Source: Psilocybe cubensis
Lineage: Eukaryota
Assembly: GCA_017499595.2 (NCBI GenBank)
Contig: CM039005.1
Coordinates: 2,604,001 to 2,668,000 of the forward strand
Direction: 5' to 3'
Length of the DNA stretch: 64,000 nt
Part shown: one piece after another, positions 3,466 to 36,984 of the stretch
Layout: every line of letters begins with the position of its first letter
How positions within the stretch are numbered: position 1 is the stretch's first letter
Made by a program: the position numbers and the translations under genes
The notes under the pieces: generated by a model
Told to the model about the DNA's origin: nothing
Databases searched by the model: none
What the model saw: the letters and a program-made list of their open reading frames with translations, nothing else

Positions 3466-3720
3466 CGACTTCAAGGTAATTGTCAGAACTGTACTTGTTC
3501 GGCTTGACGGCATGATGCGCAGTACATCACATTAGAACTCCGCCTGTTCACGTTCACGGCGGAAGGAGGTGGACTTCGACTTGATGCTGTGACTCACAAT
3601 TTGTACAAACATGCTTCCAGCCACATTCAACTCTAATGATCTGGTTGCCACTCTACCAACGATGTATACTCCCTGAATCGTAAGCAATGTTTAAATTGTT
3701 GGGATTTTTCATGTTTTTGA
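3466..3720. repeat. Dispersed block X, copy 1 of 3 (others ~8671-8945 and ~15838-16070)
   Basis: Shared gttcggcttgacggcat...actccg...atgcttccagccacat...gtaag.aat...ttgggattttt. Confidence 0.8.
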
Positions 3721-9100: not shown

Positions 9101-11268
9101 TGCGCAATGCGCAGACACGGACCCGGACAGTACGGACTCATCTTCATAGAGCATGGGTACGTAGAGTTTTAAGGATTGTACTCGGAGTCAGCTACAGCTA
9201 GGGAAGCAACACTAGCAACAGAAGCTCACGTCGATTAGGATGGCGATGGCCATGTGAAGATGGATGCAGATGCAGATTCCAACAGGGAACCGGATGATGA
9301 TGCGGGCGGGTGCGGGTTCATATATGGATAAGCAGGTGATGTACTCCGCTGCTGCTTCTGTTTCTGCAGACGGGAGTGGCGGCAGTGGAGGAGGAGGAGG
9401 GTTGGGCACCGGCATAGGTGCGTCGTTGAAGCGGCCTTGGTGCGCTATCATTGTCTGAGGCAATACCCAAGTGCCACGCCACGCTTTCCGTTTATCCCTT
9501 TGATTGGACTGTGCTACTCATTCGCGCCTTTGTGTTGCTTTTGACTGTCGACACTCACCTCACGCCTTAAAGGAGAGGTTCGGTCAGGGCATGCTCCACT
9601 GTGAATCTCTCAAAATTGGTGGAGGCACTGCGATCTTTAGGTGTGTATACAGGTGAGTGTTTCTCTCCATTTACTTACCTCGGAAGCATCCTCATTCATC
9701 ATCACCGTCTGTTGCAGTTTCCTCCCTTCTCAGAAGTGCAATCTTTGCTATGTACCACCCTTGCACATACAGAATAACTCATATACATACAGGCACTGAC
9801 AATGGGCTTCGGTCTTACGGTTTGTGATGGATTTGAAAGAAGAAAGAAGGAACTGATCTTCGTTGTCCGTCATTGGTGCGTCAGTGGCACGGTCCTTCCC
9901 ATTAACTGCCATTGTGTCATCTTTAAATGTTCAGCTGTTCTCACAGTCTACACTCTCGATGCGATTTGTGGCGCACATGGGCGTTTCCAGACCTTGACTC
10001 CTTCGTGTTTGCTCACCTTTTTCTTTGTTCATATTTTCATCATCTCTCCCTTTACATTGTGAGATCCTTTTTCCTCCATTACCCCTACCCTACTTTCTAA
10101 CTGCAGAAAGAATGGCGCATGTAAATCATTTTTGCGCCTCCATCTCGAGATAACCTTGTGCTCGCTTTGTATTGGACGCAAACACGATTACATGTACAAG
10201 TTTGAGTAATTGAATGCACCAAATGCCGTTTGCATGCGCCATAGAGGTTTGTCTTCGGTTTTTATCCACTGTCTCCAATCCTTAGCCACCAGCTCTCCTC
10301 CGATGTGAGCCGCATGGACTGGGACCCCCTTCTTTTGCTAGGAAGATGCGTCAGGGTGTCTTCCCTCGTACTTTGCAACAACATGTGTAAATGATGATGA
10401 TATGCAATATCGATAGCAGCACCCTAAACCACCTTCAGCGCGTCTTTTTTCGGCGCATTCTCATTCTTCTTCGCTGACCACTCTGTCACTGTAACTTAGG
10501 ACTTTGGTTTCGTTATCTATGTATAGCGACGCGCTTTTTCCTTTGGTGCATTGTCTCCCCGCAGCCCCCGTCAGGAATGCCATGATTATAACCATACATA
10601 TATCTATTCAAATTGACCCCTTTTTTCAAAGAATTTTTGTATCACCCGTATGTGCATGTCCTCTTCTGTACCACATCAAGGCAGTAGTTCTTAAAGATCC
10701 GCCCTGGTTTGGTGAGATATAGAACTCGCCTTTGAAGGTATAGACAGATAAACTTGATATGTGTGTGCATATGTGTGTTCTTACCTAGAGGACAATTTCG
10801 CTGTCATTCCCCACCGTGTGTACGGATAACAGTCGATATCAAAATTAATATTGGATGCTTCGAACAGCTGACTTTTCTGAAGCTGTGGAGGTTAAAATAC
10901 ATGTACTTAATAGATTCAACGTGTCTAGTCGTATGGCATTTAAATTCTAATTTTCAAAGTGCTTCCCTTGAATATGCCACTTTTTGACTTCTCATCCATT
11001 TATCTGATTCTTTGCAGAAGCAGATGAAAGATCGCTGAAGACACTCTTGTTTCCTTAATTATCGCACCATGACCAATCACATCGTCGGTGGGAATCAGAT
11101 AAATATATTTGGATGGCATGTGCACGACCAGCATGCTCCTTGCACTCCTAACCTCTTCCCATTAATGCCTCTGCTTCCAAACACTTGGTCCACTGTCCTG
11201 CTATCTACTCAGTTGAGGAACAATGGATGAAATTTTGTATAAAAGTAGAAGCCTATGTGAGTACTTAT

Positions 11269-12570
11269 CTACTCTACTATTCTATGACAATGCACACATC
11301 TCACTGCCAGTGTCATCGATTCCTTTGACCAACATCCTCTTCCTGGGCACCTTCGGGCACCATAATATGTCTCAAAAGGCAACGGTTCGCCATCCGCTCC
11401 CAGCTGTAGGCAGACGCACACTATCTCCGGTTTCATCTGCTCCTCTTTCGCTTTCTTTGAGGCTTTTGGGGACCTAGAGGCGTCACACGCAACATATCAG
11501 CCATCAGCAGTTGATCACTAGTTCGCAAGCACGTACCTCGATCCACTGCCGCTTGGAAGCGGCTCGTCCCCCCGTTTTCTCTTCCTGGGCTTTCCTACAC
11601 TGCTTGATTGGCTATCCATTCCATGAATCAGACATTCATTCAATGTGAGGGGGAAAACCAAAATTCTTACCTTTGGGGGTATATTGTGTCATAGCCTTGT
11701 GATTCCATAGGGTGTATTCCCATTATTGGGACCACTTCTGGCTCAAATGTTAAGATATTTTGGTTTTTTTCACTCGCTGGTGCGGATAATGCTGCCTGGG
11801 ACATCATGTTATGACTGAGTCTCCTATGCGACGGTGGATTTCTTTGAGGCGCAGTGACTATGGGTGGCTGCTCAAACTGCATGTTATGATCAACGAAAGG
11901 AGATGGGTTTAAATGAGGGTGCGTGGTACCAAGACTTGTACCACCAGTATCGCTCCATTCACTCCTGCTGTTGTTGGTATGAAGCTGAAGAGCAGATTCC
12001 TCGATTATAGAACGAAAATTTCTGGACAGATTTTGACATGGAACATCGTAGGCGTCATTCCATCCCGCTGGATGCATGCCACGTTCCACCCAGTCAAACG
12101 AGCCGGGTAAACGAATATCATCCTGAAGGTGCATGGTACCCAAAGTTGTACTGTCACCATTGCTCCAGTCATTGCCACTGATTTCATGAGGAATAGAAGA
12201 CTCATCATTGGTAGGTCCTGACTGTAGATTCTGACTTGGAACATCATATGCTTGACTCAGCTCCCCCGGTTCCGTGTCGTTTCTCTCCGGGTAGAATGTA
12301 TCGCCAGCAAGAGGGAGCATAGAATCCAAAGGTAACGTCAATTCCTCATATGGAAGAATCGCATTATGAGGAAATACGGATTCAGAAAAATCTGAGGTGT
12401 TGGGTGGCTGTAGAGACGTCGTCAAACTTCCGGAGATCGTATCGTTAGGCGCTGTGGGAATGAAACATCAGATAAGCAAAGTTTGTGTTTACGAGCTGTA
12501 ATTGACCAATACCTTGCGAGTTGATTCCCAACAGGCCTAGGTTCTTAGATTGCGAGCAAGCCCTGTCCAT
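11269..12570 (-). CDS. Family member D (type 1): 372-aa disordered protein with NLS-like segment and C-terminal CxC...CxxCH module
   Basis: Exons 12570-12513, 12451-11671, 11611-11537, 11473-11269 splice in frame (1119 nt). Contains LTFEPEVVPIMGIHP, KPRKRKRGDEPLPSG and IVCVCLQLGADGEPLPFETYYGARRCPGRGCWSKESMTLAVRCVHCHRIVE*. Confidence 0.85.
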
Positions 12571-12647
12571 AATGTGCGAGTTTGCAAAGATAACGTTCTT
12601 TGTAGGAGATGGAGAAAATTGACGTGAAGAACATCACAGAATGCGTC

Positions 12648-12930
12648 ATTTAAATCTTTGAGATGGGTTCTGACGGCGCGTATGTACGTGAGGTTGTAGT
12701 CTTCCACTAATTACCTGAATTGACTGAGTGGTTGACACACTTGTTGGATGCGAAGTGATTTATTGAGGCTGTTATTCATTTCCCATGCAGTGCTGACGCA
12801 CCGGAGTAGTGTACCCATTCATGATCAATACCGCAGTTCCAGTCCAAAGAATCCTGTTTTATACAGACTCGAGGTCAAAATGTTATAACTTCGAGGCATT
12901 TTTGACAGACATCGTTTATTCATTGTACGG
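12648..12930 (-). promoter_or_regulatory. Conserved family upstream element, copy upstream of D
   Basis: Minus strand CCTCGAGTCTGTATAAAA...GCACTGCAT...AACAGC...CCACTCAGTCAATTC...AACCTCACGTAC...GATTTAAA; the proximal box is ~80 bp before the ATG. Confidence 0.7.
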
Positions 12931-13489
12931 CAAGGGCACAGGCATGTCGCGTGATGGCAGCGAGGTACATTCATGCGTGTGAACCTTGAGGCCTTGAGGT
13001 TGCGCAATTCGACGCAACACCGCCTCCCTCGATCTTTGACATGTCACCTAGCACCTGCCACTCCTAAAAGAGAAACTAAGTTACCAAAAAGGATGGCTTG
13101 TCTGTTGGGTAGCTTTCTTTATTCACTGTCGTTGATAACCCGTTCCATGAGGTTGATCTCATTGTGCAGAGTCAAAGGCTCTTTTCGACCATGATAGACT
13201 CATTTAAGTAGATAGCACAAGCCATTTACAATCTGTGCTTCAATGACATCATATAATTCAAAGAAGGTCTGATAAGATAAATATACATATTACATTTGAT
13301 GCATGATGGATTGATTATCTTAAAGTATGCTCGGATTCTATCCGAACCATCCCATCTCTTCCATCGATTTCATCGTCATATAACCCCTACTCCTTTGTAT
13401 ACGTTGCAGTTGCATTTAGGGAAGAACTGTTGAGACTCTTATTGCGGAAATCTAGATGAGTGGATCATTTATTAAATGGTAGGATGTGC

Positions 13490-15006
13490 TTACTTTCCCT
13501 TCGTTTTATCAGTTCGTTTCCCTTGGGACATTACCTCCCCGGTAACAAAGTCTAAGCGCGCCACTACAGCTCGAGGCCTACGTGGTGCACTAGCTGCGCC
13601 TGGCGTCCTTTGTGACTGTGCCTCCATTGTCAATTCGTTGTCGAATGTGTCCAATTCATGAGGCTGCGTAGCACTACCATCTCTGGCAGTACGCCCGCGT
13701 TTCTTTGCGCTTTCACTCGAAGAACCCATTTTTTTGGAGGAATTTCTTCCTCTTGATGCTCTTGGGGTGGCATCGTGACTGTCAATTAAGGTTATATCAG
13801 ATAGATCAGCACTCAATTCCAGTTCTTCAGAGACAAAGCGCCAGGATATACCTTCGAGCATCTTCTGGGCCAGACCTCCCTGAGGTTAATCGCTGATCAA
13901 CGGAATTGAATCCGGAGCCTTTTGCTTCATTAGATTCCGTGTGCTGGAATTCATCATTGACTGGGTATGCTTCTGTCTCTATAAATGGACGGAAACGAGT
14001 ACGAGGAGGATGTTTATCTTTTGGGGGCATGGCGTTGTGGTCCCGTTCTGCACTGCTTGAACTTCTGTTTACACTCTCGCTGGGCACATATTCCCTGGAG
14101 TGCCTTTTAAGACTTCCGTACGGGGTGTATCTCCCTAAATCCCGAACCTTTTCGCGCCGATGCGGAGGCACTTGTAAATGCGGGGTTTTGCCGGGCAGCG
14201 CCAGCAACGCAGGATTAATTGTTCCCGTTGCCACGTAGACTTCCAGTAGAGGGTCAGTCCATTTTTCTATCACTTGATTCAATGCTGGTAACTCTTTTGC
14301 GAGTTCAACATAATCACGCGGCAGAAGTGCAGAGGGCGTATCACTATGTTGGAATGAATCTTGAGGTGCTTGAGGGATAGGTTGGGATGGAAATGGTGTA
14401 TTGCCAAACATATCAAGCCGTAGATTATGAAATAAATCATCCCCGGAGTGACTATGCCCAGGTGTGTGTTCTGCAGGATGCAATGTTTTCCCGACGGAAT
14501 TCAAAACATCTTCACGGGCAACCGGAACAGTCCCATGACAAGTGGAACCATATAGGGATGATTGGGTAAACGTTGATGGTTTAATAGTATGAGAGAACGG
14601 CATGATTTGAGAGTTTAACGCATGAATTTGTAAGACCGCCTGTGCGCGAGTACCAGCGGATGGATTGGCATCGCTAGGGGTAACAAGAGGTAATTCTAGA
14701 TTGTCCAAGTAGGTCTCCTGGTAGCCATGGTCATCAACTTCGACTTCTGTGATTAGAATAATTAGCGTACGTAGGAGATGGATACTGGTCACGTATTAAG
14801 CTTACCATTCCAGCCACTGCTTTCAAAGAAGTCCTGTTTTGGGTTTTGCTGAACGTTCCTGCTGTCTTCGTAGACAGATTGTTCGGTACGATGGTATTGG
14901 GAAGCTTATGTACCGAAATCAACATCATGCCGTTCGAATAGGATACCTAAAGCTCACTATATTCGCTAGCGGTCGGGACAGACTGAGAAACGCCTGAGTT
15001 TGACAT
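13490..15006 (-). CDS. Family member E (type 2): multi-exon disordered protein ending RLDFVTGEVMSQGKRTD
   Basis: ATG 15006 (MSNSGVSQSVPTASEY), two short 5' exons, a long exon inside ORF 13827-14792 ending CTCGAAG|GT, and a last exon inside ORF 13490-13861. The C-terminus aligns with member I. A tiny extra 3' exon is possible. Confidence 0.75.
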
Positions 15007-15599
15007 TGAGTAGCAGAGAAGACGAGGGTGGTGAAATGCAAAAAGTGATGTTTGTTTCTAACAACTCGCTTTCTACTCGTCTGCCTTAAAAGTCCGGAGT
15101 CATTGCGTTGACACGCGTGGAAATTGTACCCTAGAACAACATTGACACCTGCGTGTATCCATGAGTCAAACATCGCGGATTCGTGTCACATTAATTCTCG
15201 ATCCACTCCAGGATATGTTTAGAGACAAACGACAGCGACAGATAGCCTCATTGTATGGAATATACATTCCGTCGAGCGACAAAAATAGAATGCCAACCTC
15301 ATGCAAGCCAGCTGGCGGAACCGGACCTGACCGACTTTGATCCCGTGTTCCACGCTTAATCCAGCAACGGATCCTATCACTACTCTAAACTAAAAGGCAT
15401 ACTACGGGCTGGCATGCGTAGGTGATTTAACAATGTGAATGTGCTGTCTCAAATAGAGTCTATTACACGCAATTTTCCTAGAGACTGAGTGCAGTGCAGG
15501 GAAAGGTATGATCGAGGTTTGGGAGGGGGTAATTTTAAAGCGCAGCACATAGGTTATGAAGTAGAGACGGTGTGTTGACATAATTTGGAGACGACAGAT

Positions 15600-15705
15600 A
15601 CCGCTGTTCCAATCCAAAAAATCTTGTTGTATACCGGCTTGAGGTAAAAAGGTTACAACTGCGAGGCATTTTGCAAAAACATTATTTATTCCTCGTGCGG
15701 CATGG
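15600..15705 (-). promoter_or_regulatory. Partial (distal) copy of the family upstream element, ~600 bp upstream of E
   Basis: ccgctgttccaatccaaaaaatc...tatac.g.ct.gagg...gaggcattttg..a.acat..tt.ttcctcg aligns with 945-1045, 2412-2520 and 12830-12925. Confidence 0.6.
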
Positions 15706-18254
15706 AGTCTTGAATTCACTAAAATAAACATACGTCCTAGAACGTCGTGCACTATGAAGTTCGAAAAGTACAGTTGAAAATGTCGAAAGATACAAAAGAT
15801 GCTGCTATAACAAATTAACATGCCCTGAATCGACATCCGGTTCGGCTTGACGGCATTAATCGTGTACACTTTGAAACTCCGCTGTTTGACGACGAAACGA
15901 GGCGTGAGGTGGGCTCAAACTTGACACGGTTCCTTGCTATTTCCCTATGCTTCCAGCCACATCAATTGTGCTACCCCCTTCAAAATTCACAGATATTCCA
16001 ATTCTCAACTCAAGGATAATACTGGATAATATTGGCTTTTGTAAGTAATCGTTTTTGGGATTTTTACAGTTTACTTGTCATTGTCAACAGCCATTCGACG
16101 ACAAAGTTGGAAGACGTGGTACTTTACGTGTCGCACACAGTTCCCATCTTCAACCGCACCACCACCACCACATAAACCCCAAACCACCCGCTCTACTGCG
16201 TCCTCCTCACATAATACACGTCCGACTTCATCCACGTTGTTCCTTTCAAAGGGTGCTTCCTCCAGGTCTTGCTCACCTTCAAGTACATATTAGGGTGGAT
16301 ATTGCGCATGGAGAGGATGTGGTACCGCTGACGAGGGAGTTGAAAGAGATTAACATAGTGGATATTGGTCGGGCTGCTGTTGGTGTGAATGGCGGAGGGT
16401 GCGGTGGAAGGGTTGTGGATGAGGATACAGCGAGGTCACACCTTCACCTCCAGCTGCGCCAGCTCTTTCCCAATCCATCAGTACCTCGGTCTCGACCCTC
16501 CATCACCACTCACACCCGGGGAGAGAGGGAGAGGGAAGAGAAGATGAAAGGCAAAGGATATCAGCCCAATGTCAAACTCAAACCACACCCTCACCCCCAC
16601 TCACCGCAGTGGTACGTACACCAAGAAATATAGGATCTCCCCGGCGCGGACGACTGCGTACACCACCACACTTTTTAGCGCCGATATGAGTTTCGCGGAT
16701 GTGTCGGGATGGGCCGCAGACGAGGTTGTTAGGCGAGGTGTTGGTGAGTTTGTGGTGGATTGTGATCTTGGTATGGATTCTGGTTTTGATATTTTTATTT
16801 CGGCAACACTTTTTCAGGGATTGGAGAGCTTGTGATGGGGATGAGGGTTTAACACCGCACGTTTCGGAGGGCGATGCAGAAAAGCCATGGTGTTGTAAAT
16901 GGTGGTAAACATCCACAGAATAACAACGCGAGAGAAAATTTCAAGGCAAAGGCGAGAGCGTAGCACCCGAGGACCATCACGCGCTGGCACAAGGTGCACT
17001 GTGGGATGCCTACACTGGACATGCAGCATACGGATGTCTAAAAGTACAGGTACAGACGGTCTTCCAGATCAGTTCACCATGCCTCGCGGGCGGGAGGGCG
17101 TATGCGCGTCTGTGTATTTCGCTATCATTGGACATTTGCTTATTCTCGGAGTCTTCACTCACGATGAGATGGCGCACACTGTCAACTTTGTGCATCTGGG
17201 ATCTGGATTCTTTCGTGTTTCCCCCTATTCTACATTCTCATATCCAACACATCACTTGCCTTACCTCTGTCAGCTAACTAGCGTCCTTCACCCCTTGATC
17301 CTACCTGACTTTTTAACTGCAGAAGAACGCCGCAGCATCCTTGTGGAACGCAATTACAGGCCCAAATATAATCACATATGTACACCTGTGAGTAGCCGGC
17401 TGGTATGTTGCATACGCCATCCAGTGCCTATAACAGCCGGCACCTGCTCTCTGATATGGGTCGAATGGGACCCGGACTCCCTTCTCCCTCCAGGAAGATG
17501 CGTTACGGTGCCTTCGCTCGCACTCTGTAACCGTGACTCGTGTGAACGACGGTGACATTGTTCCAATTGCCCACAACTGCACCTTTGCCTCTTTCTCATT
17601 CCCCCTCCACTGATCACTCTGTCTCTGTACCATTGATCTTGTGCACTCTCCCTCCATCTGTCTGTCATGTTTCGATTGCACCATACAGGCAGTTCTCAAA
17701 CTCCTCCCCCTTTCCTGACAATGCCCCATATTACTCGCACGGCTTGTTTTCTGCTATACCACATCAAGGCAGAAGTTCTCCACTCTCTTTCCATATATTG
17801 GGTTTGAAGTAGAACTCGCCTTTGTAGTCATAGACAGATAAACCTGGCGTGCGCGTTCATATGCGTGCCTACCTAGCGAACAATTTTGCTGTCATTTCCT
17901 GCTCTGTGGACGGTATAACAATTGATTCGAAGTTGATCTTCGACGCTTCGCAAAGATGGCTTTTCTCAAGCTGCAGACGTTTATGAGTGTACATACTAGA
18001 TTTCATTCAAAAAGTGGAATATCCTACATATTTACTAGAAGCAGTCGATTCAGAGGCGTCACGCTTCCGAGATACCAACACATTGGTGTACCAGGGGAGA
18101 CTGTCCTCGAAGAACATTTGTTCAGCATTTCGTGCTCATTCATGGCAAGAAATGTTTCCTGAGTCTTGTCTCTACTGGGTTCGATTCCGTTGCCCACCGC
18201 CAGCCTTCCTGTGCCAATTGATAATCCTGAAAATACTTTAAGCTCAGATCTAAT

Positions 18255-18388
18255 GGAGTTGTATCCACTTGAAAGCGGCTCGTCCCCTAGTTTCCTCTTC
18301 CTGGGATTCCTCACATGGCCCTTGCTTGATTGACTACTCATTCCATGAGTCAGACGTGTATCCAATGTGAGGGGAAAAACCAAATAAA
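18255..18388 (-). pseudogene. Family member F, remnant of the type-1 intron 2 and exon 3
   Basis: Encodes SQSSKGHVRNPRKRKLGDEPLSSG; the intron part (ttggttttcccc.tcacattg.at...gtctga.tcatggaatg..tag) nearly matches D 11537-11665. Confidence 0.75.
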
Positions 18389-20467
18389 CCGCAGAAGCAT
18401 TTCCCGAGACTGATGCACAAGTGATCTCACCCACTTTTACTCCTTCATTTCGGTGTCTTTGTCAATGTATTCGCACCCTTTAAAGGGACAGTAATGCGCA
18501 AAAATCCAGGCACAGGATAACCTTGCATGCGCCCTAGAAAGTGATTTAGTAAAGAAAAAGAATATGCATTATTCCCGAGCACCCTTGAGGTCACCCGTTG
18601 CAACACCCCTAAAAACGGAAAACTACTTCCATCAATTTTAGTTTCTTACAATCATTTTGCGGTACATCAGAGAGATTTCAAGGTAAGTAACAAACTTAAG
18701 TATCTCAAATTGCTTCCATGCAAATAAAAGATGACACAACGAATAGTACATCTCCAACTGAGACAGACTCGGTATTCGAATTTCCTTCGCACCCTTCAAA
18801 TCTGAATAAATTAATTACTGTCAGTAAGCCTGTATCAAGTGATTTGAGACGCAAAAAAGAGCCTACTCGTAGAAGGTACAAATGGAGCCTTCAAAGAGCA
18901 AAATACTCTGCACTAAGTCAATCCAAAACTCAGGTATATTGGTGCATAGCGCAGGGTTAATAACAGAAGGGATAAATGAGTTTCCCGTATAGTATGCGCC
19001 GTCAAAAAATTCAACCATAGACTTTATCCCCCCTTTAACGGGCTAGCATTAAGTATACGGATAGTTAGGATTGAAATGATATAAGGAATGCAAAGTCGTC
19101 ATACTTGAGTGTTGGGTGGTGCAGGGTTTCCTGAAATGACCGAGGGAGTTGATGCAGAGAGAAGACAAGTAAGGTAGGTACCAATCCTCAGCTTCATGTC
19201 TGTAATTGGTCGTGAAGCTTGCTTGTGGGGTACCAACTCGGGAAACTGATAATATGTAGACAAGGTTCGAGCACATCCTTTAAACCCAACCAGTATATAA
19301 GTCAATACAGAAACTGCACTCCAAGCTCCGGATTTCCCGAAGTCTAAGCGCTCATTCAATGACAATGATATGAATCGGTCGCTGTGTTCATGAGGTTTGA
19401 CAATCCATACATTCAAATTACATCAAGGGATCATAATTACACCATTTTGAGAGTATGGTTGGGCCTAAAAACAGCTCAATAGACAGCGTATCAATGAACG
19501 ACATTGGATTGTGCATAGGTCACATTGTGGTTTGAGTAGACTTGCCTTGAAAGCAGATGTATTTGTTGGCGTTTTACCATTTTTAACTTCAAGCCGAACT
19601 TGGCTGAGTTGTATGGGGTCTCCGAGATAAACTCCGATTGGCCCAGCAATTGGCTTGCATTGCTAGTCGCCAAAAGGTTCCCACGCTACCAGTAACCCAA
19701 AGGTGACGTGCAGGGTGCAGTGCATCACCAGAAAGCTTGCAGAGAGTGCCAAAAGCCTGATTCATTATTCCAGTGGGTTTTGGAGAACATTATTTTGATG
19801 TGTACAAGTAAGATTCATCTTCAAGATATGTTCTCCATTCAAGCCGTTGGTTAAGCATCTATTTCCAATTCAAAAACTCTCACGGTCCGCGCTATCAATC
19901 GATCTCAACAGCATTTACAAAATTTTGTATACTCTCAATCCGGCACTATGTTCATCGATTCTATCGACGCGTTGGTATCATTCAAAGACCTCTACCTTAC
20001 TCCATCTTAAATTTACAGACACCTGACTGGACCGATACACACCGATCAGAGGGAGACTTGGGATGGTCACTTTATGGCTGGGGAAGCACAGGTGCGAGTA
20101 ACAATTCACTTGGATTTCATGCCCGTCCAAACTTCGGTAGGAGTTCTATGTCTACATGCCTTGTAATTTCTATCCCACGTCGTGGATACTTGTCCGGTTT
20201 CGGTAGGATGTTTTTTGCCATCCTCCAGTCATTATGCCCCCCTGATCTCTATTCTTTCCTCCGCTGTTTGCCTCGTCATCGACCTCATCAACGGCTCCAA
20301 CAACCGTCAATGGGCCGCGTGCCCCTGGGTACTTTTACCTCCGCTGTAACCGTATAATTTCAGATAGATCTCAGGCGCATGCAAAGTGTTATGATGTACC
20401 TCGCATCTCGATCACGGCTGTGATCTGAATGCCTTTTCATGGTTTCTTCGGATCCGACTGGGCATTT

Positions 20468-21325
20468 TCAGAGTTCTGGGTACCTCTGTGAAGTTCCGAT
20501 GTTTCTATATTCCATCAGTTCCAAATCAACGAGAGCCGGAAAGACAAAACTTACCTTCGAACAGGTATCCGACGGCGCCCAACATGGGTGACCCGCTCGA
20601 CGGTACTATGCCCAGAGCTGTCATATTTGTGGCTGGGCCGTTTGAATCTAGTGTTTTGTGGTAACTCCGGCTCTCCAGTTGAAGCGCAGGAATATGGAGT
20701 ATAGAGTGGCAGATGGTGCGGCGCAACTGGCGCATACACATCCGAGTCGACAGCGCCGCTCTGGTAAGAATCCCTCTCAGACATACGCATCTCAGGCACT
20801 CGGCGTCTCCCTGATGTCTCATATGGCAAAGGACTTGTGTCGAGCGCCTCTCTGGGGATATTGGCAATTATTGCCGTGTTTTGAGTTGGGTGCGTCGCGG
20901 GAGTGCTCGCGACACCGTGAGTGGTTTGCAGTGAATAGCGACTTGGCTCGAATGGAGACGGCTCAACATACGGCGGAAATGATGCTTCCATTGTCGGATG
21001 CATCACCAGAGGTGACACTTGGTCAACATTTGAAGCAAGTAGAGACGTCGACGGGGGATGCTCGCATAGCGACTCTCCTGAATCTGGAAATTTGGTAGAC
21101 GAGAGTAGTGAATCCAGACCATCGGAGTCGAACACTGGGCCAGTAGACAGGATGTCTTCAGGGTTTCTATTGAGGTCAAAGTCGCTAATATAGAAGCCCA
21201 TAGAGGCCATAAAATCTGTAGCAGTGAGGGTCATATCTTGTGAAACATTATGAGTGGCGCATCACCGAAAGTTGGGAATAATACTCACCGTTGATTTGGC
21301 TGGATCCTGCTGTATATTTATCCAT
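20468..21325 (-). CDS. Family member G (probably type 2); 3' end truncated or degenerate
   Basis: ATG 21325 (MDKYTAGSSQIN), a phase-1 intron, then a long S/P/acidic exon (ORF 20551-21234) ending GTTCGAAG|GT exactly as in member I. The next exon meets TGA after ~12 codons and no GxRxD tail is readable. Confidence 0.55.
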
Positions 21326-22486
21326 TGTATTGTGCGAGGCAGAGATGCTAGATGTGCGGTAGTCCTCAACGGGGGAAATAGTTAAAAAGGGATACAAATG
21401 TGCTGAGTAGGATGGGTGCATTTTGCTAATCTTCGAATCAGGATAACAATACTAGTTGAACAGCGAACTCGTATACACAATCTTTAAATAACAAAATACA
21501 GTGTAACAGCATCCGACATGAGTAAAACCGGCCTTTGTTCTTCAAGGCAGGAGTGGCTCAGTCGTCCAGCCTAAACCCGATCTCAATGTCATATCATTTC
21601 CCAGGGTTCTCCCCTTTCTTTTTGGTGTCTTTTAGGTGTTTTGGGACACACTAAACACCGCCAGGCCGCGGTCTCGTGGTATGATTCCTCAAATTTGGGG
21701 GAAATTCCACATCCTTGGGCACAAGATGCATCATCCAAGTTCTCTACCCTGTAACTCCGACGGTGTGCACACAAACAGAAAGGGAACATGGGCATGTAGT
21801 CCTCTTGCAGCGTACTACATGCTGTGCAGTTACTGCACAGCGGGTAAGCGCCAATGTCTATCTTGCTGCCAAAGAGTTCGCAGTTTATGAAACTTACTAT
21901 CGACAATGAAGGAGACTTTAACCTCGTTGAGGGGGTAATTTTGCTGCGTTTTTTAATACCTTAGTGTATGATCCGAATGAATAAAAGTTCGAAGCACTGC
22001 CAGAACATCGTGTGGCTCGAGTGGCGAGGGAAAATCTTGATTAATCTACCCGAGTCTACAATCGACCATTGTCTGATAACATGATCAGCGTGTTAACAAA
22101 GCTTCATGGTTCTGATACCGGTGGCCATTATCGTGATAGTGAGTCTTAGTCAACAACTAGTTTTTCCAAGGCTTCGCGTTATTCCGGTAGATCTTAAAAT
22201 TCCTGAGACGTGCTGAAAGATTCAAGAATCACTCACGCTCCTTCGCAAAGACCTCGGGGTCGGCTCCACTGTCTATCACATCAGAAGGACAATTTCTTAG
22301 AAGATCCTCTGCAAAACTTTCTTGAGGCTGATGCTCCTCGACATTTCATCCAGAGTATGTTGGAAAGCTAATAATATATGATGACCTCACTTGCACCTTG
22401 AGGTTAGCCAGAAGGAGAGTTCAAGCTATGGCACTACTCCTGCCACGATCGAAAAACCATTAATCAAAAGCCTGGCTGCGAACTTG

Positions 22487-22715
22487 TGAATTAGAGTCAG
22501 TATAAAAAAGGAATCATTGAGCAAGAAGTGCAGTTATCGGATTCATGTACAGCAGTGGCTTGTTCACTTGCACTGCATTCCACTTTGAAGTAAACAGCGC
22601 CCAACGACAGCGTCTAATTTTGTGTCGGCCACTGAGTCAAGTAGAGTAGTTAGTTCAGGCCTTGTAACCTCACGTCCTCCACAACGTTGTAGTGAACGTC
22701 GACTATTTAAAGCCT
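22487..22715 (+). promoter_or_regulatory. Conserved family upstream element, copy upstream of H
   Basis: AGAGTCAGTATAAAA...GCACTGCATT...AACAGCG...CCACTGAGTCAA...AACCTCACGTCC...TATTTAAA. Confidence 0.7.
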
Positions 22716-22800
22716 TATTCCAATAGCTTCTCCTGCATATTTCTTCGTCTTATCACATCTATTACCTCTACTCTTCGTACAATTACACCCGCTAATAATC

Positions 22801-24199
22801 ATGGAAAGCCGTCCAGCATCTGTAAATGAAGGAGTATCTGGCATCAGCCCTACAGGTAGAGCGTCATTGAATCTCAAGTCAAAGAGTTTACTCACCCAAC
22901 GCAGCGCCGTCCACAGTTAACCCCGAATCTACAAGTCAAAGGAACGTCGCAACGCCACTAAGTCAACCTCTAGTCACGTCCGCTTCGTCAGACTTTATAT
23001 TTCCAGCAAACATGATTCTTCAGTATCCGTCAAGAACCGATCCCATTATACCTCTGGATTTATTTCCATCTCCACAAGAACCACTGTCCCTTTCAGATGA
23101 GGGGCTGACTCTGACCGGCAGATATGGCACTGGAAATTTCTTCTCTGGAACTGAAACTGGAGACGAACTGAACACGTTTGAGCCCAGTGTGGATGACAAT
23201 TCATTCGAGGATCTCCATTCCAAACCAAGATTTAGTGAATTTTCTATTGCAGGTTATGACGACAACGGATATGCCTCTCGTACCAATAACACTATGGATC
23301 CGGATAATGCATATTGTATTAGCTATGCGCCAAAGCCAATGGAAGCCAATGTGTCTCACCCACCGCAAACCCTATTATTTGGATCAAATTTTGCCGAGCC
23401 TATCGTTGATGACCATCGCAGCAACAGCTACACCTCTAGCATCGTGGGTGGTACAGGTCTGGAGCACACATCCCCTGTGTATCCGCCTTTCTCTCCTAGG
23501 TATTCGACCCGCAATATAGCAATTCTTGAATACAATTCAGAGTATGAGCAGCAGAAACACACTCTACTCCCCGTACACCTTGAAGGGACACATTCGCGTA
23601 GACGGCATGATCGTAGTCTGTCAGTCGATGGCATACATTACGAAGAAAGGGGGAAACCAATAACATTCAAGCCGGGAGAGATCCCAATAAACGGGATACT
23701 CCCTAATGTGACGCCGAGGTCTTCCCCAACGCACACTCGAAAGTATGTGATCATTGGTTAATACCCTCTTCTTCGTAGACATGGACTAATCAGATATGAA
23801 CAGGCCCATGAGAATGGATGCAGGTACAACGGCCAATGGAAGAACCAACAGGGGTGTGGCAAGAGGCTGTAATACGAGGTACGCGTCATCAACTGGTGCA
23901 GTGAAAATTTCAACATTGATATACAATATCTCGGGTGCTGCACCTCCAGGTCTACTAAATCCCAAAAGACGCCGGGAAAGAACCGCACGGCGTCCAAGGA
24001 GGTATGTGTGTGCCAGAAGCGCGGTGTCGATGGCAAACGCGAGCCGGTGAAGACATACACGGGGCCTACGAAGAGTCCGGGACAAGGTCATCGCTCTGAC
24101 CTGGCAAATAACTCAGCAAAGAAGTGTGAGCTGTGCCATAGAGAAGAGGTTCTTCTGGAAGAGAGATGGAGGAGCAACAGCACTTTTATTGGAGAGTAG
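22801..24199 (+). CDS. Family member H (type 1): 405-aa protein with C-terminal CxC...PGQGHRSDL...CxxCH module
   Basis: Exons 22801-22855, 22905-23742, 23804-23878, 23950-24199 splice in frame (1218 nt), with the same intron phases and the same 75-nt exon 3 as D. Contains SDFIFP..., ITFKPGEIPINGILP and EVCVCQKRGVDGKREPVKTYTGPTKSPGQGHRSDLANNSAKKCELCHR. Confidence 0.85.
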
Positions 24200-26167
24200 T
24201 CGGTGGAAAGGAGGGTTCTGTCCGAGAAGCACAATGGCCTTGCAGTATATATATATCATGAATACTTGATCATCCAATTTTCTCCGATGACGTGATTGAG
24301 AAGCAGGAGAAACTAGAACTTGATATAAAATACAATTCCAGTGAATCAACATGAATACATGTGCTCACCTGTCGGTAGAATTGTGTATGGGGTACGATTT
24401 GGGTACAATCCACAGCGCTGAGCATCGGTGCTGGTCGAGAACGGTCATTCAGCAGCCGTAGACGTCCGTGAGGATAGCGGAGTGTAAATTATTCCGAGCT
24501 CAGCCTGTCGTCGGATCATATCGGATTTCAGTTTCGCGATGCGTTGAGCTTTTATCCATATTTCCACCATCCGTTGCCCCGTCTTCGCGGGTCTAGTTCA
24601 AGTACACTTAATATTTCGGAGGTGGCTTTCTTCCAGGTAATTCTTAAAACACCTTTTACTCGTCGATACTCAATTTTGTCTCTAACAGAAAGGTAGCATG
24701 CGTATCTTTCACCACCTGTGACAAAGCTTGTGGAATGGAATGTGAGTCTACGACCGCGGTGAGTGCTATTCGCGTCGCATGTGTAACTTTCATGAACAAT
24801 TTATGAAGCCTGAAATTTCTTGGTTACACCTTCATTGACACTAATCTGCTTGGTGTTGAAGCAGTTGAGTCCCCTGTTTTTATTGTCACTTTCCTTTCAG
24901 CTGGCACTAGGTTCCCAGAAATTCTCAGACATGGAAATACGCTGGGTGGCCAACGCATTCACGTTTTTAAAGTTCCACTCTTTATCCCGCTCTACCCATC
25001 CTACTGAGCATATTCTGTCTGCAAGCGTAAGGGCCGAGGTCCGAACGCATTTCAACCATCCCTGATCACGAACTGCGCCGTATTCCCTCCCTGAGTTAAG
25101 CTGGGCATATGATTTGTTAGGCCTTTCTGACCATCTCCCAGGTCCACGCCCTGCGGAACTGAAGCCAATGCACTTAATGCCACTGAGAGTATCCATCCCT
25201 TGTTCCGCCCCACCGCCCTCGATGAGCTCGCTACACTGGGTTTCGAGTCGATACCCACTCAGCTATCCTCTATCTTTATTGCTACAGCATCTTTGAATGG
25301 CCAATGTTTCTCCTCACTTACACTGCTTGACATCGTACCCCTCGGCCTTGGTGTCTTCTGTAATCCCCTGTTTTCTTGGTAACTTCAAAACCTGGAAACC
25401 GTCTATCGCAACTAATGCTTTGCATACTTATACGGAAATGGGTTATGTTGTCTGTAATTTAAGTGGACCCACAGGCTCGGTTGTGTAGGCAGCGTGATAG
25501 TGTCTTTTTGTGCACTACCGCCAATACCTGTGAAACAGGAGAAACCGTTTGTATTGACACTTGACGTTTGAAACGAATACCCCATCTCTTAACATCAAGG
25601 TGCCCACGACGTTGATCTGTTTGAACTTTCTGACGTATCTTGAAGGAATGGTCAGTAGTAAGATTACAATTTGGCGTCTTGTGCACCGGTATCACGAGTG
25701 CATTGAATGTGGTTCTCGTTGCCCAAATTTCTCCTCAGCGGTCCGGTAGTATAGAGACCTACCGTATTACTTTACACCAAAGTTTGTAACGCCACTCCGC
25801 GGCTATGAAATGCATGAGAATGTGTGGTGAACTGCGGAAAACAAAGACATGAGGTGGCAACTTCACCGGAAGTCCATTTCCGGAGACCCATGAGGTCATT
25901 TTAATACTGTTCTGTTATATAGCAATCAAATATTTCCAAAAAATGCTTACAGAGCTGGAATGCGAGAGCGAGCGAGGTAAGGAGCTGTGTAAATTCGATC
26001 GACAGGTTTGTATTGCGTGGATTACTGGCTTGTATTCAGACATGAGACTTGCGCGTGTTAATATGTGTGGTCTGCCTTTATAACAGCGCTTGGACAGATC
26101 CAAATTTCTCCACATAAAACTTTCTTGTCTTCGTAAATCTCTCTAAGCTCTTCAAGAACTGTATCCC

Positions 26168-27466
26168 ATGTTTTCCATCACGTTTGATTTTGCCGATGCC
26201 GCTACACTGGCAGAAGTGACTTCAGCCCTTCAGCTAACATCGACGGGCCTTGAAGGTGAGCGCATCTACAATCTTTTAGGATACACGCTTATCGGGAGTC
26301 TGCAAAGGTTTCTCACTGGAAAACGGGGGCACAACGATTGATCCAAATATATGGTTCATCCCCGACAACCTTTTCCAACAGATGTTTGGCAGTACATTGC
26401 CATTGAATTGGCAAGAATACGTCCCGATCACACCCAATATACACGACCCTCCTCCTCCAGTTCCGCGCCCGTCTAACAGTCACGGAGAACAGCGTCTATC
26501 CGACTCTGAAGGGGCAAATAGTTCTTTCGCTGACATAGAAGCATACCGCGGTACATACCATGCTGAGCATGAGGGAGCTTCGGGCTCAAGCAGCGTCGTA
26601 TATCCTGATACAAAACACTTTGGATGCGACATTCCTGTAGGCCATTTTCCAACTGATCAGCAATTGGTATTCCCAGAAGTGCTGAATGGATCACTTAACC
26701 AACACATGGATATTTTCCACAATGACTATGGTGCGCATCAAATCTACCCAGAGCCACGGATGACCTCCACTGGAGATCCTACCATTCCGCCATTCCAAGA
26801 AGCATCGAACCAAACATTTCTTGGAGGGTATCCTAACCCACGAGTATCTGTACATCCATATTCTGGCGACACGGAAGAAGGAAAGACAGAAAGAAACGAT
26901 AACATATTCGACTACGCAGAACACCATAAACATTCAGCTTCCGGGATGAGTCCCGTTGAGCAGAATGATGGCACATCTGCCTCAACAGCAGTTCGAAGGT
27001 AATATGTTTGTTTCTATCTTTCATACCACTATGGCTGATGGAAGATATGGTAGTAACATGCAAAGGCCTCAAATTGGCATGTCGCCAAGTGGTGAAGGTG
27101 ATGCAGGCAGTCTATACCAGACGCAGACTGCGAGACATCCAAAGGGCAGCACAAGGTACGCAAGCATAGTCTTCAATCCTCAGAAGAGAATGACAGGTAT
27201 TCTGTTCAAGATTCCAAATCAGACTAGCCAGGGGGACGTTTGATGCGCACCATCTTCCCGCTCTAGATGCGGCTGCAAGAAACGGGGCGGTGTTTGAGAG
27301 GGATGATGGAGAATTGCAAAGTGTAGGAAGAAAGACGAGACTAATTGATGGACGGCGTCAACGTCAAGCTGCAAGAACGCGCTTAGACACAGTAACCGGA
27401 AAACCAATGAGTCAAGGTCTACGGCCTGACTGCGAGGGATATAAACCTAAAACTCGTAGAAAGTGA
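26168..27466 (+). CDS. Family member I (type 2): 4-exon protein ending RLDTVTGKPMSQGLRPD
   Basis: ATG 26168; exons 26168-26255, 26308-26998, ~27054-27155 and ~27211-27466 give an open frame. The C-terminus RQAARTRLDTVTGKPMSQGLRPDCEGYKPKTRRK aligns with E. The last acceptor is uncertain by a few codons. Confidence 0.75.
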
Positions 27467-27865
27467 GCACATATTCAAAGAAATTGACCAGCTAGACTCT
27501 ACTAACAAGTTATCCATGCACCTAGGCGTTCATAACTGTTTCATCATGGACTCCGACGCGCTTGTGAGATATATACGAGTGAGCTAGGAGGCTTGATAGG
27601 TTGACGAGACGACATCGATGGAAGGGAAAGAATCCGAATATAGTCCGAGATAATCAATCAATCACATGAACTATATAATCAATATGCTTATCTTATCGTA
27701 CCACAACATTGCCTCGAGGAAAATCTATTAAAGATTGTATTTAGTATAAAAAAAGACTGTTGATGAATAAAAACATGTTTTGGTGTGGACTGCCCTTTAA
27801 ATTTATGCACCCGGAATTTTGGCGGTTAGATGGATAATATATGAATCCCTCAAAGTGTCCTTCAA

Positions 27866-28086
27866 ACCTCGAGTCAGTATATAAATAGAGTCTTTGAGCA
27901 AGCAAGGTAGATTTTAGAATCATGTTCTACAGTGGCCTGCGCTCAAGCACTGCATTTCACTTTGAGGTGAACAGCGCTCACCGCTGCGCGTGGAAAATAT
28001 GCGACATCCACTGAATCAATTCACGTAACTGGTGTAGGACTCACGTCCTCCACAAGATGGTAGTCCAACTTTGACTATTGAAAGTC
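27866..28086 (+). promoter_or_regulatory. Conserved family upstream element, copy upstream of J
   Basis: CCTCGAGTCAGTATATAAA...GCACTGCATT...AACAGCG...CCACTGAATCAATTC...ACTCACGTCC...TATTGAAA (proximal box mutated). Confidence 0.7.
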
Positions 28087-28165
28087 TCGTTCAAATGGCT
28101 TTGCCCTTACAGTTGTTCGTCTCTCACCTAACTCTATCTGCGCATAATTGCACCACATAACAAAT

Positions 28166-29209
28166 ATGACCAGCCAGACACCCTTTGTGGTTGAAAGAGT
28201 AGCATGCATCGACGCTACAGGTGGGGAGTAATTACATCTTAAATCAGTGACATTACTCATCCAACGTGTTAATTGCTTCAGCACCTTCCGTCAACCAACA
28301 ATCAACAAGTCAAAGCAATAATGTCGGTTCCAATGGTTCAACATCACCAATTCAACTGTCTACCATTTCAGCTTCGTCCGACTTTATATTTCCAGCTAAG
28401 ATGACTATTCAATAACCACTCAGCAACAGCCCGAATATACCTTTGGGTTATTTTCACCTCTCCAAGAGTCACAGTCCCTTTCTGACACGGGTTTCGCTTT
28501 CTCAGGGCATTATGAGACCAGCCGTCCCCTCTACGGCGCTGGAGTCGGAGACGGACTGAACACGTTGGAACACATTGAGGATGACAACGCATCCGACACA
28601 TCAGATTATAAGCCAAAACAGACTATGCACCCTGTCCTCCGCGACGGTATACAAGGATCCGGAATGTATGATCCTGACCTGAAGCCCAATGCCACATATT
28701 TTGAAGAAAGACAACGCAAACAAAAAACATTCAAGCTGGGAGAAATTCCGATACACGGAAATTTCCTTAATGCGATGCTGGAGTATTCCCCAACCTATGC
28801 TTGAAGGCATGTAATATTTGGTTTTAGTCCTCTTTGTTTATAGGCATCAAGTAATTGAGAATCAATAGGCCCCTGCAATAGGAAGAATCCAATGAACAGA
28901 CGAAGAGTGACATGATCAAGGAGCTTGATTCAAGCGACGGTCATCCAAGGGATGAGTTCACACACATGTATCAAGGATGTCACTGACAGTCAATAATTAC
29001 CGCGGTGTGCCTCTAGATATCCCAAGGCATCAAAGAGGTACACAAAAGACACCACGTTATGCATTTGTCAACGACGCGGGGCGGATGGGAAGCGTGGACC
29101 AGTGGAGAGCTACACTGGGACGCCAAAAACTCCAGGAGGGGGTTATCGGTCTGACCTGGCAAACAACTCGGCCGTGAGATGTACCCTTTGCCATAGAGTA
29201 CTAGATTAA
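28166..29209 (+). pseudogene. Family member J (type 1), pseudogene closely related to H
   Basis: Same 55-nt exon 1 as H. TAA at 28413, a frameshift shortly after, TGA at 28802 (CGA in H) and damaged donors. The last exon still reads LCICQRRGADGKRGPVESYTGTPKTPGGGYRSDLANNSAVRCTLCHRVLD*. Confidence 0.85.
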
Positions 29210-30661: not shown

Positions 30662-31152
30662 TCAGAAACTTGTGCATTCGAAAGATTCAATGTTTTGGTA
30701 AAGGACGGGGTTACCAGTCGTGGGAAGTGTCGCAACACGACCAGCCTGGACCTTTCCGGCACCCTGGCAGCCGGTGAAGCTGTACCCGCATGGTATTGTC
30801 AATATTTTGACCAATCGCTAGGTGAAGTGATGGATACAATACTGACCTATAGAAAGTACAAGTATACCCAGAGCCGACGCTCATACTTTCAGCTCTGTTT
30901 CTCCAAGGGGAGGGTAGGTCGATGCATGTGTCGGGTTGGGCATTGATAGGGGAGTAGGTATTGCCAACAAAGTTGATGTCGTCGTAGAATATGATGGATA
31001 GTGCGTCGGCGGACTGGAAAAGTCATGTTGGCTGTATATAGTGGATGGTATTGAAATGGAAGGCATACTTGAGCAATGGGGGGAGCAGCTTGGACAGCCA
31101 GAGCCGAGGATACAGCTGCAAGGACCAGGGACGAGATGCTGGTGAACTTCAT
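30662..31152 (-). CDS. Small secreted protein, 122 aa, 4 Cys, beta/gamma-crystallin-like
   Basis: Exons 31152-31069, 31013-30847, 30779-30662 encode MKFTSISSLVLAAVSSALAVQAAPPIAQSADALSIIFYDDINFVGNTYSPINAQPDTCIDLPSPWRNRAESMSVGSGYTCTFYSFTGCQGAGKVQAGRVATLPTTGNPVLYQNIESFECTSF. Signal peptide; FYDDxNFxG, CTFYxxxGCxG and NIESFEC resemble Greek-key motifs; TATAAA ~85 bp upstream. The fold is an inference. Confidence 0.85.
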
Positions 31153-33007
31153 GTTGCTGGTTTGTGAGTGGGTTTTTGTGCAGTAGAGACTCGAGTGATT
31201 TGCTGAAGATTATTGAATATGTATCAGCTCCTTTATACGTTTGCGGCTGTCCCGTACTCGTCACGTAATTCTGACTACATTGAATAAGCATACCTCGCCA
31301 TGATGAGAAGCCAATCGCCGACTGCATTGGGGAGTACATTCCAAGGCCTCCGTTACTATAGAAACTCTTGAGTATATCATTGATTTAGAGTATTGACAAC
31401 ACTTCCGTCGGTACACTACAACCTCCGTATCCCGTGTCTCTGATCATTTGTTATCAACGCACGCCACATTGTCCTATAGCCAAAGTTGCATAGTTTCACC
31501 ATACCTTCTTCGTGAGAATGAAGTCACTTCACGCTGTCTTTCTATTTGTCACCTCCAGGACATCTTTCCATGCAAGTACGGATCAATATCGTTGCAAATA
31601 GTATTTCTATTAGCGCGCTTTTCCATTGCCTCTTGGGCACTCTGGTTCTGGAGTGTTTTCATCGAAACTAATCCAGTTTCCGTCCCCTCTCTCATTGAAT
31701 CATTGTTCATTGTATGTTCATGGACATCGTGATTCTGGAACATGTTCTTCAAAGCCTAACAACCTTTCCACGACGTCTCTGAACGAGTTGAGCCACTTAC
31801 AATAACCTATTCATTCCCTCACTTTGACCACGCAGCCTCTTCTGGTGGGTCTCTTTATGCTTATGTGATATATCCAAATTTAAATGAGTACATATTTTTT
31901 TCTCTGTGTTTACATTGTCAGGATACCTAATCGTAAGTGCGGTCTGGAACGCAGTAGGCCATCACTAATTTAAGTTGGAATAGAAGGACATTGATTTCTA
32001 CTACACTTTTTCTTCACGGGCCGTAGAAATCTTTTACCCGACTTCAATACCTCTCTGTATTCTGAGAATGTAGATGCAACAAAGTTGTTGTTGTTGTTGA
32101 TAAAAAGTGTTAGTGAATGTCAATATCACGAGTGGTCGAAGGGAGCTGGTGTAAGTGTGAGATGTATCATTTTAAAAGAATGAACGTAATAACCCTAATA
32201 CTATCACCCTTCCTTCAGCTCAATGACTTATTGAAATTTTCCCTGCCATCCACTGTAGCTCTGCCGCCTCCGATGTCCTGTTTCGACGCTGCTGCATGCC
32301 TCTCGCAGTCCCAATATTGTCTTCCTTCCTCCAAAGGTTTCCTCCAAAGCTGCCTGTCCATCGCGTTATGTATCTTATTTTCCATCTATCTCGACGAGTA
32401 GATTTGGTATTGCTCCTCTCAAACTCCGTTACCTCGCAGTTATTTGCTTTTTGTACTTTACGAGCTGAATATTTGTCCCTCTTCCATACTCCATCTCTGT
32501 ATGCCTCAACAATCATCGAAAGCTGCTCGACATAGACTTCCACGCTGCCATCCAACATCATCTTCAAGAGGACTTCACACCCCTTCCTAGACAGGTCAAC
32601 TGCAAGAAGGTGCTGATTACTGCTGTATGTGTATCATTTATAAATAGTAAGCGTATTAGGATACGGAGGGTATAATGTACCGATGGAATTGCTATTGATA
32701 TCTTTAATCCATGACCTGTTTTTGTAAGCTGATGTACGAGGCATGTCCTGAAGAATCCTCCAATACGTAAACAAATAGACCTCAGTTTCTCTTAAACGTC
32801 GTTTCATCGAAGGCGCCGAGGTGTAGTCTCTGAAATGCAGTCGTAGATTGGCTTTTCATTATGGCCAGGTATGCTGATCCAAAATAAATTAGCAAAATCT
32901 GAGGAAAATAGTACAACCGACGTATAAAGGCACTCACACATGTTCAACAGTCCTCGGCATGTCCCTCGACACTCTACTCTACAAAGAGCCGCTCAAAATC
33001 CAGCAAC

Positions 33008-36976: not shown

Positions 36977-36984
36977 ACCGTGCG

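Follow-up and report, generated by a model that had tools for sequence, protein, structure and literature searches.

Two gene classes at the D–J locus of Psilocybe cubensis

The window analysed here is a 64,000-nucleotide stretch of Psilocybe cubensis DNA (contig CM039005.1), in which genes are lettered A to J and positions 11269–29209 hold genes D to J. Word-based protein searches named P. cubensis as the source of the window, which has a G+C content of ~45–50% and zero N stretches. Two kinds of gene are found here, class 1, whose last exon carries a cysteine (Cys) module, and class 2, from which this module is absent. We consider it likely that they form a species-restricted, segmentally duplicated and partly decaying cluster, whose two classes of protein are unrelated in sequence and mostly disordered.

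Three of the cluster genes correspond to annotated hypothetical proteins. Searches with the Cys exon retrieved the product of H (JR316_0009300, here P0001; 351 residues, 99%) and a second P. cubensis protein, P0002 (391 residues, 82%), while the class 2 end exon retrieved the product of E (JR316_0009297, P0003; 455 residues) and P0004 (JR316_0009361; 416 residues, 49%), and the long exon of G retrieved P0007 (JR316_0009299; 283 residues). A further protein, P0005, is JR316_0009360. The exon models of E, G and H were obtained by mapping the proteins back to the window, and their strands and exon ends agree with those of the initial annotation. The gene places and strands it gave were borne out for D, E, F, G, H, I and J, with D, F, G and E on the minus strand and H, I and J on the plus strand, as was the head-to-head arrangement of G and H, the ATG codons of which lie at 21421 and 22801. 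The genes are as follows, with a slash marking the end of an exon and ORF denoting an open reading frame.

D, 11269–12570, minus strand: class 1, apparently intact; the exon model was built here and is not an annotated one.
D, 5' exons, minus strand: exon 1 (MDRACSQ...) at 12514–12570; long disordered exon within the ORF 11667–12467.
D, 3' exons, minus strand: basic mini-exon (PRKRKRGDEPL) at 11539–11613; Cys exon at 11272–11475; stop codon at 11269–11271.
E, 13387–15006, minus strand: class 2, JR316_0009297, five exons; long exon ending ...GCTCGAAG/GT at ~13852; end motif RLDFVTGEVMSQGKRTD at 13508–13558.
F, 18255–18396, minus strand: class 1 relic in which the basic mini-exon region alone survives, 79% identical to that of D.
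G, 20468–21421, minus strand: JR316_0009299, 283 residues as annotated; long exon ending GTTCGAAG/GTAA, like that of I.
Degenerate class-2-like end motif (RGPLTVVGAVDEVDDEANSGGKNRDQ), 20242–20319, minus strand: 3' of the G long exon and outside the annotated model.
H, 22801–24199, plus strand: class 1, JR316_0009300, annotated from 23012; likely start MESRPAS at 22801, as in P0002.
H, exons, plus strand: 23012–23745, 23803–23881 and 23949–24199; the Cys exon contains GQGHRSD at 24080–24100.
I, 26280–27466, plus strand: class 2; long-exon ORF 26280–26999 ending GTTCGAAG/GTAA; end-exon ORF 27194–27466 with RLDTVTGKPMSQGLRPD at 27380–27430.
J, 28166–29209, plus strand: class 1 pseudogene; exon 1 at 28166–28219; TAA at 28413–28415, then a 1-base deletion; GC donor; Cys exon at 29012–29206 still open.
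A, minus strand: class 1, outside the D–J range; class 1 profile match at 2–493.
B, minus strand: class 1, outside the D–J range; weak class 1 profile match at 2054–2440.

Class 1 proteins share a conserved Cys exon

Class 1 consists of D, H and J, together with A and B, and its last exon carries the pattern CxC-x37-CxxCH. The genes open with a short first exon (MESRPAS.., MDRACSQ.. or MTSQTPF..). The long disordered exon that comes next carries two conserved motifs, SDFIFP.. towards its 5' end and ..EIPxxGILP towards its 3' end, and is followed by the basic mini-exon and the Cys exon. A profile of the Cys exon matched three of 3047 six-frame pieces of the window, namely D, H and J (E-values, or expectation values, of 1e-35 to 1e-38); these three are within the profile, and the informative part of the result is that no other piece matched (next best E-value 3.3). 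The whole-protein class 1 profile additionally matched A, B (weakly) and the long exon of D. Residues C21, C23, C61, C64 and H65 (numbered in the H exon) are kept in H, P0002, J and D, and the two Cys pairs are invariant in four of the five class 1 sequences, with P0005 lacking the second pair as annotated. Between paralogs, nonsynonymous differences in the Cys exon (pN 0.29–0.39) are well below those at the silent sites, which are saturated (pS 0.62–0.75 overall and 0.67–0.75 in the Cys exon), corresponding to a ratio of nonsynonymous to synonymous rates (dN/dS) of ~0.2. The Cys exon is under purifying selection.

From their pattern and conservation, the four Cys and one His residues may form a small putative zinc-binding knuckle, and the basic mini-exon is a candidate nuclear-localisation signal. 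Small zinc knuckles and ribbons with CxC...CxxC ligands are exemplified by the CSL-type finger of DPH3/Kti11. Class 1 resembles these in having four conserved putative ligands in two pairs, CxC and CxxC(H), and differs from the CSL-type finger in its spacer of 37 residues, in finding no Pfam or PDB sequence match and in giving a low-confidence model. Neither the Cys exons nor the whole proteins matched the known zinc-finger and ribbon families in Pfam, including CSL, CxC1–6 of KDZ transposons, GRF and PARP-type fingers.

P0002 is 73% identical to H, comes from the same species and is collinear with H. Within its residues 1–167 long runs match H exactly, and residues ~168–341 are much more diverged and carry NVMLGYSPTH, which can be compared with NAMLEYSPTY of J. 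This mosaic is suggestive of gene conversion. At 24146–24148, just after CHRE, contigs of runs X1 and X4 replace one base by 39 letters, giving an allele that would end in CHREVE and a stop codon, like D, J and P0002; the H allele in the window resembles a deletion of 38 bases, by which a tail of 17 residues is added.

Class 2 proteins share an end peptide of their own

Class 2 consists of E, P0004 and I, which carry a near-invariant end peptide, RLDxVTGxxMSQGxRxD. Apart from this peptide they are marked by conservation of the N-terminus, by a long disordered exon and by a basic patch (KKRGRTARDG). The end motifs reported earlier for E and I were recovered as RLDFVTGEVMSQGKRTD and RLDTVTGKPMSQGLRPD, respectively, with no Cys module in either gene. 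E and P0004 are 45% identical over 407 positions, and a profile made from these two, with I excluded, found I at an E-value of 4e-4, second to E alone. I also joins class 2 through the last 40 residues of its long exon (IF[QD][HY]..SG..PVEQ). The common long-exon end described for E, G and I is likewise present: the long exon finishes with TCGAAGGT in all three, at 13857 in E, 20560 in G and 26993 in I, which makes up three of the six occurrences of this sequence on both strands of the window.

The initial annotation also proposed that both subtypes keep G-x-R-x-D and seem to present one peptide, either on a zinc scaffold or in its absence. The motif itself is found in H, J, P0002, P0005, E, I and P0004 and is missing from D, which has GRGCWSK. 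The shared-peptide proposal fails, the similarity between class 1 and class 2 being at chance level. No relation between the classes was detected by hhalign (E-value 0.2 for whole proteins and 0.84 for end domains), local alignment scores were at the level of shuffled sequences, and the best of 15 motif comparisons was reached by 33 of 1000 shuffles. As far as these comparisons go, G-x-R-x-D does not amount to a peptide common to both classes.

G had been marked beforehand as the weakest link, and whole-protein tests match it to neither class. Its whole protein and long exon have no similarity to class 1 or class 2 (best z 2.8; no match in profile searches). In the degenerate end motif 3' of its long exon, 10 of 26 residues match the class 2 consensus, giving an E-value of 0.002 against one piece, or ~0.02 for the 12 pieces at that spot. 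This motif lies in the right place and on the right strand for class 2, G shares with I the 12-base donor GTTCGAAGGTAA, and by eye there is a class-2-like stretch, SG..[ST]VE[RQ], near the end of its long exon. G is probably a decayed class 2 gene, an assignment to which we attach no weight.

A TATA-bearing element precedes class 1 genes and one class 2 gene

An element of ~110 bases with a TATA box and the core GAGTCAGTATAAAAC.GGATT.TTTGGACTGGAAC precedes five class 1 genes and the class 2 gene E:

926–1036, minus strand: copy upstream of A.
2393–2502, minus strand: copy upstream of B.
12810–12923, minus strand: copy upstream of D.
15586–15694, minus strand: copy 5' of E.
22467–22552, plus strand: copy upstream of H.
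27844–27931, plus strand: copy upstream of J.

A search of the window with nhmmer gave these six matches at E-values from 1.9e-31 to 2.7e-13, with the next at 0.3, scores that are partly circular as the profile was built from the same six copies. Independent pairwise blastn comparisons link the A, B, D and E copies (E-values 1e-22 to 4e-49) and the A copy with that of J (1e-10), and the H copy joins through the H–J comparison alone. The copy at E is 80% identical to that of D over 108 bases and stands ~580 bases from the ATG, compared with ~250 bases at class 1 genes. In the nhmmer search of the window no copy was found before G, I or F.

The element bears on the idea that the classes belong to one superfamily, in which one class would be a strongly diverged derivative of the other, class 2 for instance a Cys-less form of class 1, and the pair would go back to tandem duplication of a single gene. 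Consistent with this, E has an upstream element homologous to that of class 1, and the classes are built alike, with one or more short 5' exons before a long disordered exon, then a basic patch and, at the end, a conserved motif. In addition, the long exon is closed by a phase-2 ...AA[AG]/GT donor in both (CTCGAAA/GT in H; TCGAAG/GT in E, G and I). The donor likeness, however, amounts to three bases beyond the usual AAG/GT, the element of E stands further from its ATG than the others and may be a leftover of duplication, and the hhalign and local alignment results given above detect no kinship. Common descent of the two classes thus appears improbable.

A two-gene unit was copied together

The initial annotation suggested that a two-gene module, class 2 upstream of class 1, is repeated here by co-duplication. 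For E>D on the minus strand and I>J on the plus strand this is borne out. The two are inverted relative to each other and collinear, with five features in the same order: class 2 end exon, class 2 3' flank, TATA-bearing upstream element of class 1, class 1 gene and class 1 3' flank. The flanks align as follows.

13266–13351 with 27702–27617, inverted: class 2 3' flank of E and I; blastn, 68.6% over 86 bases, E-value 2e-7.
11044–11108 with 29442–29378, inverted: class 1 3' flank of D and J; blastn, 72% over 65 bases, E-value 5e-6.

Another adjacency of the two classes lies ~60 genes away, where JR316_0009360 (P0005) and JR316_0009361 (P0004) have neighbouring locus tags. P0004 is the sole further class 2 protein found outside the genes of the window, and this locus is probably also a copy of the class 2–class 1 unit. 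Ranks of identity are incongruent between the classes (J and JR316_0009360, 55%, versus D and JR316_0009360, 33%; E and JR316_0009361, 45%, versus I and JR316_0009361, 30%), in what is a weak test of three taxa that cannot be rooted.

G>F, which had been listed as a further copy, does not behave as one. The flanks of D and F are 72–79% identical, yet E and G have no detectable DNA or protein similarity; therefore G>F did not arise by copying of E>D. F sits instead in a larger tandem unit made up of a block a, a His/Pro-rich region K and a block b, which is present as three repeats (3400–6194, 8682–10916 and 15828–18002) and carried class 1 genes along. Around D and F the unit aligns at 10284–10916 with 17435–18002 and at 11549–11662 with 18265–18384 (79%), and elsewhere at 5555–6194 with 17089–17854, 8480–8552 with 13022–13101 and 8819–8937 with 15937–16065. 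The unit is thus also found at 5555–6194, and the junction there, 8552–8682, holds no class 2 gene, in contrast to the E site at 13101–15828. Between E and F lies unrelated sequence (16.0–17.5 kb). The ORFs 16049–16633 and 16899–17555 have no Pfam match. RNA-like contigs lie on 15940–16739, and their loose ends suggest paralogs.

Class 1 also multiplied by itself. A, B and a third, 3' relic (B') form a class-1-only tandem array in which 918–1727 aligns with 2385–3218, the upstream elements of A and B included. H reads as a solo duplicate of a J-like gene: its similarity to J begins inside the upstream element (22494, corresponding to 27871) and stops at the stop codon, in two blocks.

22494–23208 with 27871–28596: first block of H–J similarity.
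23550–24143 with 28611–29198: second block of H–J similarity.

Several copies are dead or decayed, namely J (stop codon and frameshift, the TAA standing where H has TAT), F (Cys exon lost) and B (stops in the end exon). For F, profile and alignment checks of the window found no Cys exon, long ORF or upstream element. A mobile-element reading was rejected, since transposon domains are absent and the copies are saturated with differences at silent sites.

The alternation of subtypes noted earlier therefore holds in part. From D to J it is partly inherited through the two-gene unit, and given solo copying of class 1, the separate origin of F, the decayed state of J and the weakly class-2-like character of G, it is partly accidental; outside this range it stops, A, B and B' all being class 1. 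Strict alternation of four and three genes has a chance of 1 in 35, and it arises from tandem copying alone, with no function needed.

The recurrent adjacency could instead mark a functional two-component pair, in which class 2 and class 1 act together, as a heterodimer or under common regulation, and selection keeps them side by side. A class 1 gene immediately adjoins all three clear class 2 genes (E, I and JR316_0009361), it lies downstream on the same strand at E and I, where strands are known, a class 1 upstream element stands before E, and both classes have basic patches. Against this, duplication of the unit alone explains the adjacency, class 1 multiplies without class 2 (A/B/B' and H), and the shared upstream element is absent at I and G. 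Moreover, the long exon of I is open and its frame preserved though its downstream partner J is dead, and the F gene beside G is a relic. We regard such a partnership as unlikely.

Coding potential, disorder and antisense RNA

Comparison with contigs from other strains or haplotypes showed that indels inside coding exons of E, G, H and I are multiples of three in five of six cases (3 bases at 13894, 3 at 23268, +3 at 26447, 60 at 23300–23359 and net 54 at 21148–21203), and the sixth, of net 38 bases at 24146–24148 after CHRE, merely swaps the tail. Outside exons, two of nine are multiples of three. These counts are of the indels shown, four more lying outside the listing. The exon indels are thus mostly frame-preserving and so fit selection for open frames.

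Both classes are predicted to be mostly disordered. Models made here had a mean predicted local distance difference test (pLDDT) score of 49.7 for the Cys module and 40.9 for whole H, and ESM Atlas models scored 0.37 (E) and 0.35 (H). In the ESM Atlas, E and H gave no usable feature match, and every structure retrieved had a TM (template modelling) score below 0.3.

Runs X1 and X2 contain RNA-like contigs that cross H in antisense:

22820–23924, minus strand: spliced antisense RNA across H; introns 22820–22895 and 23867–23924 read GT..AG on the minus strand.

These introns were seen in X1 and X2, with no such joint listed for X3 or X4, and the X1 and X2 contigs cover 22896–24316 and retain the sense introns of H. 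X1 contigs also lie on 24662–25903, so the antisense RNA may start near the upstream region of I. X1 and X2 are guessed to be RNA and consist of contigs only, in which uncovered parts are not evidence on the level or absence of sense transcripts. The minus strand was rejected as the coding strand at H, as the spliced minus-strand RNA lacks a long ORF, whereas paralogs, purifying selection and frame-preserving indels all belong to the ORF on the plus strand.

Relatives and comparison with known systems

No protein relative outside P. cubensis was found for either class in protein, PDB, Pfam and metagenome searches. Pfam searches with the Cys and other exons and with the full proteins P0001–P0005 and P0007, all at E-values up to 1, gave no family for the full proteins, and PDB sequence searches gave no match, including for the Cys module at E-values up to 10. 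Against 1.84 billion representative sequences the Cys profile had three matches at an E-value of 0.001 or lower, two of them P. cubensis proteins and one a spurious repeat protein. A metagenome scan with the same profile confirmed one of 44 candidate stretches, which was rejected as a chance match, its contig being bacterial and its frame non-coding. In a full-text literature search for the locus-tag prefix JR316, the papers among the matches listed were unrelated, and the two classes appear to be undescribed.

The pairs had been likened to HD1 and HD2, the two dissimilar homeodomain genes that lie side by side at the matA mating-type locus of mushrooms. The likeness is that two dissimilar, nuclear-looking genes adjoin and that duplication has repeated the pair within the genome of an agaric. 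The analogy fails on two counts: Pfam finds no homeodomain in either partner, nor any domain in the full proteins, and the orientation is tandem (E>D both minus, I>J both plus) rather than divergent as in HD1/HD2, with G and H alone head-to-head. No mating-locus genes were found in the parts of the window scanned, where an ABC transporter and a DUF4604 gene were seen.

Fungal poison/antidote drive families include wtf of fission yeast, with membrane-spanning proteins, and Spok of Podospora, with nuclease and kinase domains. Like these, the cluster is species-restricted, tandemly amplified, fast-evolving and rich in pseudogenes; unlike them, it shows no membrane, nuclease or kinase domain in the Pfam searches. 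It also has two separate genes rather than one gene with two products. The genes could be read as a selfish or recognition system: either a poison/antidote pair (meiotic drive) or one for non-self recognition, with duplication and allelic mosaicism as the sources of its diversity. In favour of this are the restriction of the family to one lineage, its fast evolution, its multiple copies, many of them dead, the frequent in-frame indels between strains, and the mosaic, partly J-like C-terminal half of P0002. Disordered orphan genes, however, commonly show such patterns, P0002 may be either an allele or a paralog, and Pfam finds no toxin, nuclease, kinase or membrane domain; we consider this reading extremely improbable. 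A more elaborate version is very improbable as well: the class 2–class 1 unit would be a two-component system peculiar to Psilocybe, in which Cys-free and zinc-knuckle proteins would act upon one another, for recognition or as poison and antidote; duplication, gene conversion (as in the mosaic P0002) and copy death would record an arms race, and the antisense RNA over H would take part in controlling the system.

The closest kind of system is an ordinary one, a taxonomically restricted, tandemly amplified gene cluster. As in other orphan clusters of Agaricomycetes, no relatives outside the species were found, the proteins are predicted to be disordered and the genes are tandemly duplicated. 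What sets this cluster apart from mere noise ORFs is that its two-class unit recurs and that purifying selection acts on its Cys exon.

A history of duplication and decay

On the preferred reading of the locus as a duplicated and decaying cluster, an old class 2–class 1 tandem pair was duplicated whole on one or more occasions (E>D and, in inverted orientation, I>J; JR316_0009361/JR316_0009360 is probably a further case). Class 1 was additionally copied alone (A/B/B' and H), larger units of block, K, block and class 1 gene were copied, yielding F, and several copies died (B, F, J and the end exon of G). The two classes would lie together because the two-gene unit was copied, and their adjacency would reflect shared history, and perhaps shared control, rather than an obligate complex. 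The likeliest role is that of nuclear regulatory or chromatin-associated proteins, which we offer tentatively, as a possibility short of even.

Several points weigh against this account. The zinc site, the nuclear signal and the proposed role are all read from the sequence, with a structure model of the Cys module that is unusable at its pLDDT. The class 1 element at E is better explained by shared control or common descent than by simple proximity, the RNA-like contigs over H are all antisense, and the adjacency of JR316_0009360 and JR316_0009361 is read from their locus tags. Finally, the description as species-restricted depends on searches that need ~45 bits or shared 5-residue words, and relatives as distant as D is from H could be missed in unannotated genomes.

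If this reading holds, the locus is a tidy case of growth and decay of a species-restricted family, in which copies of a two-gene unit, of single genes and of larger blocks lie within 30 kb, dead and live side by side. It also provides a first description of two protein classes, with their motifs, exon structure, TATA-bearing upstream element and evidence of selection. D–E, H–I and JR316_0009360–JR316_0009361 are concrete pairs for the study of interaction and expression in a fungus that is now genetically tractable. A long-standing question would be opened only if the partnership or the drive reading were true.

Other features of the window

Downstream of the cluster lie an ABC transporter gene at 36978–39010 (ABC_tran and ABC_membrane) and a DUF4604 gene at 44467–45216, and the sequence at 36519–36977 has an inverted partial copy at 62508–62933. 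A small ORF lies in an inverted duplication (30885–31328 and 32834–33284, 74% over 454 bases), one frame of which begins with a hydrophobic, signal-peptide-like stretch (MKFTSISSLVLAAVSSALAVQAAP). Tandem-repeat arrays are found in or beside ORFs at 46912–47720 and 52101–52744, with units of ~180–200 and 130 bases, respectively, that are 70–77% alike.

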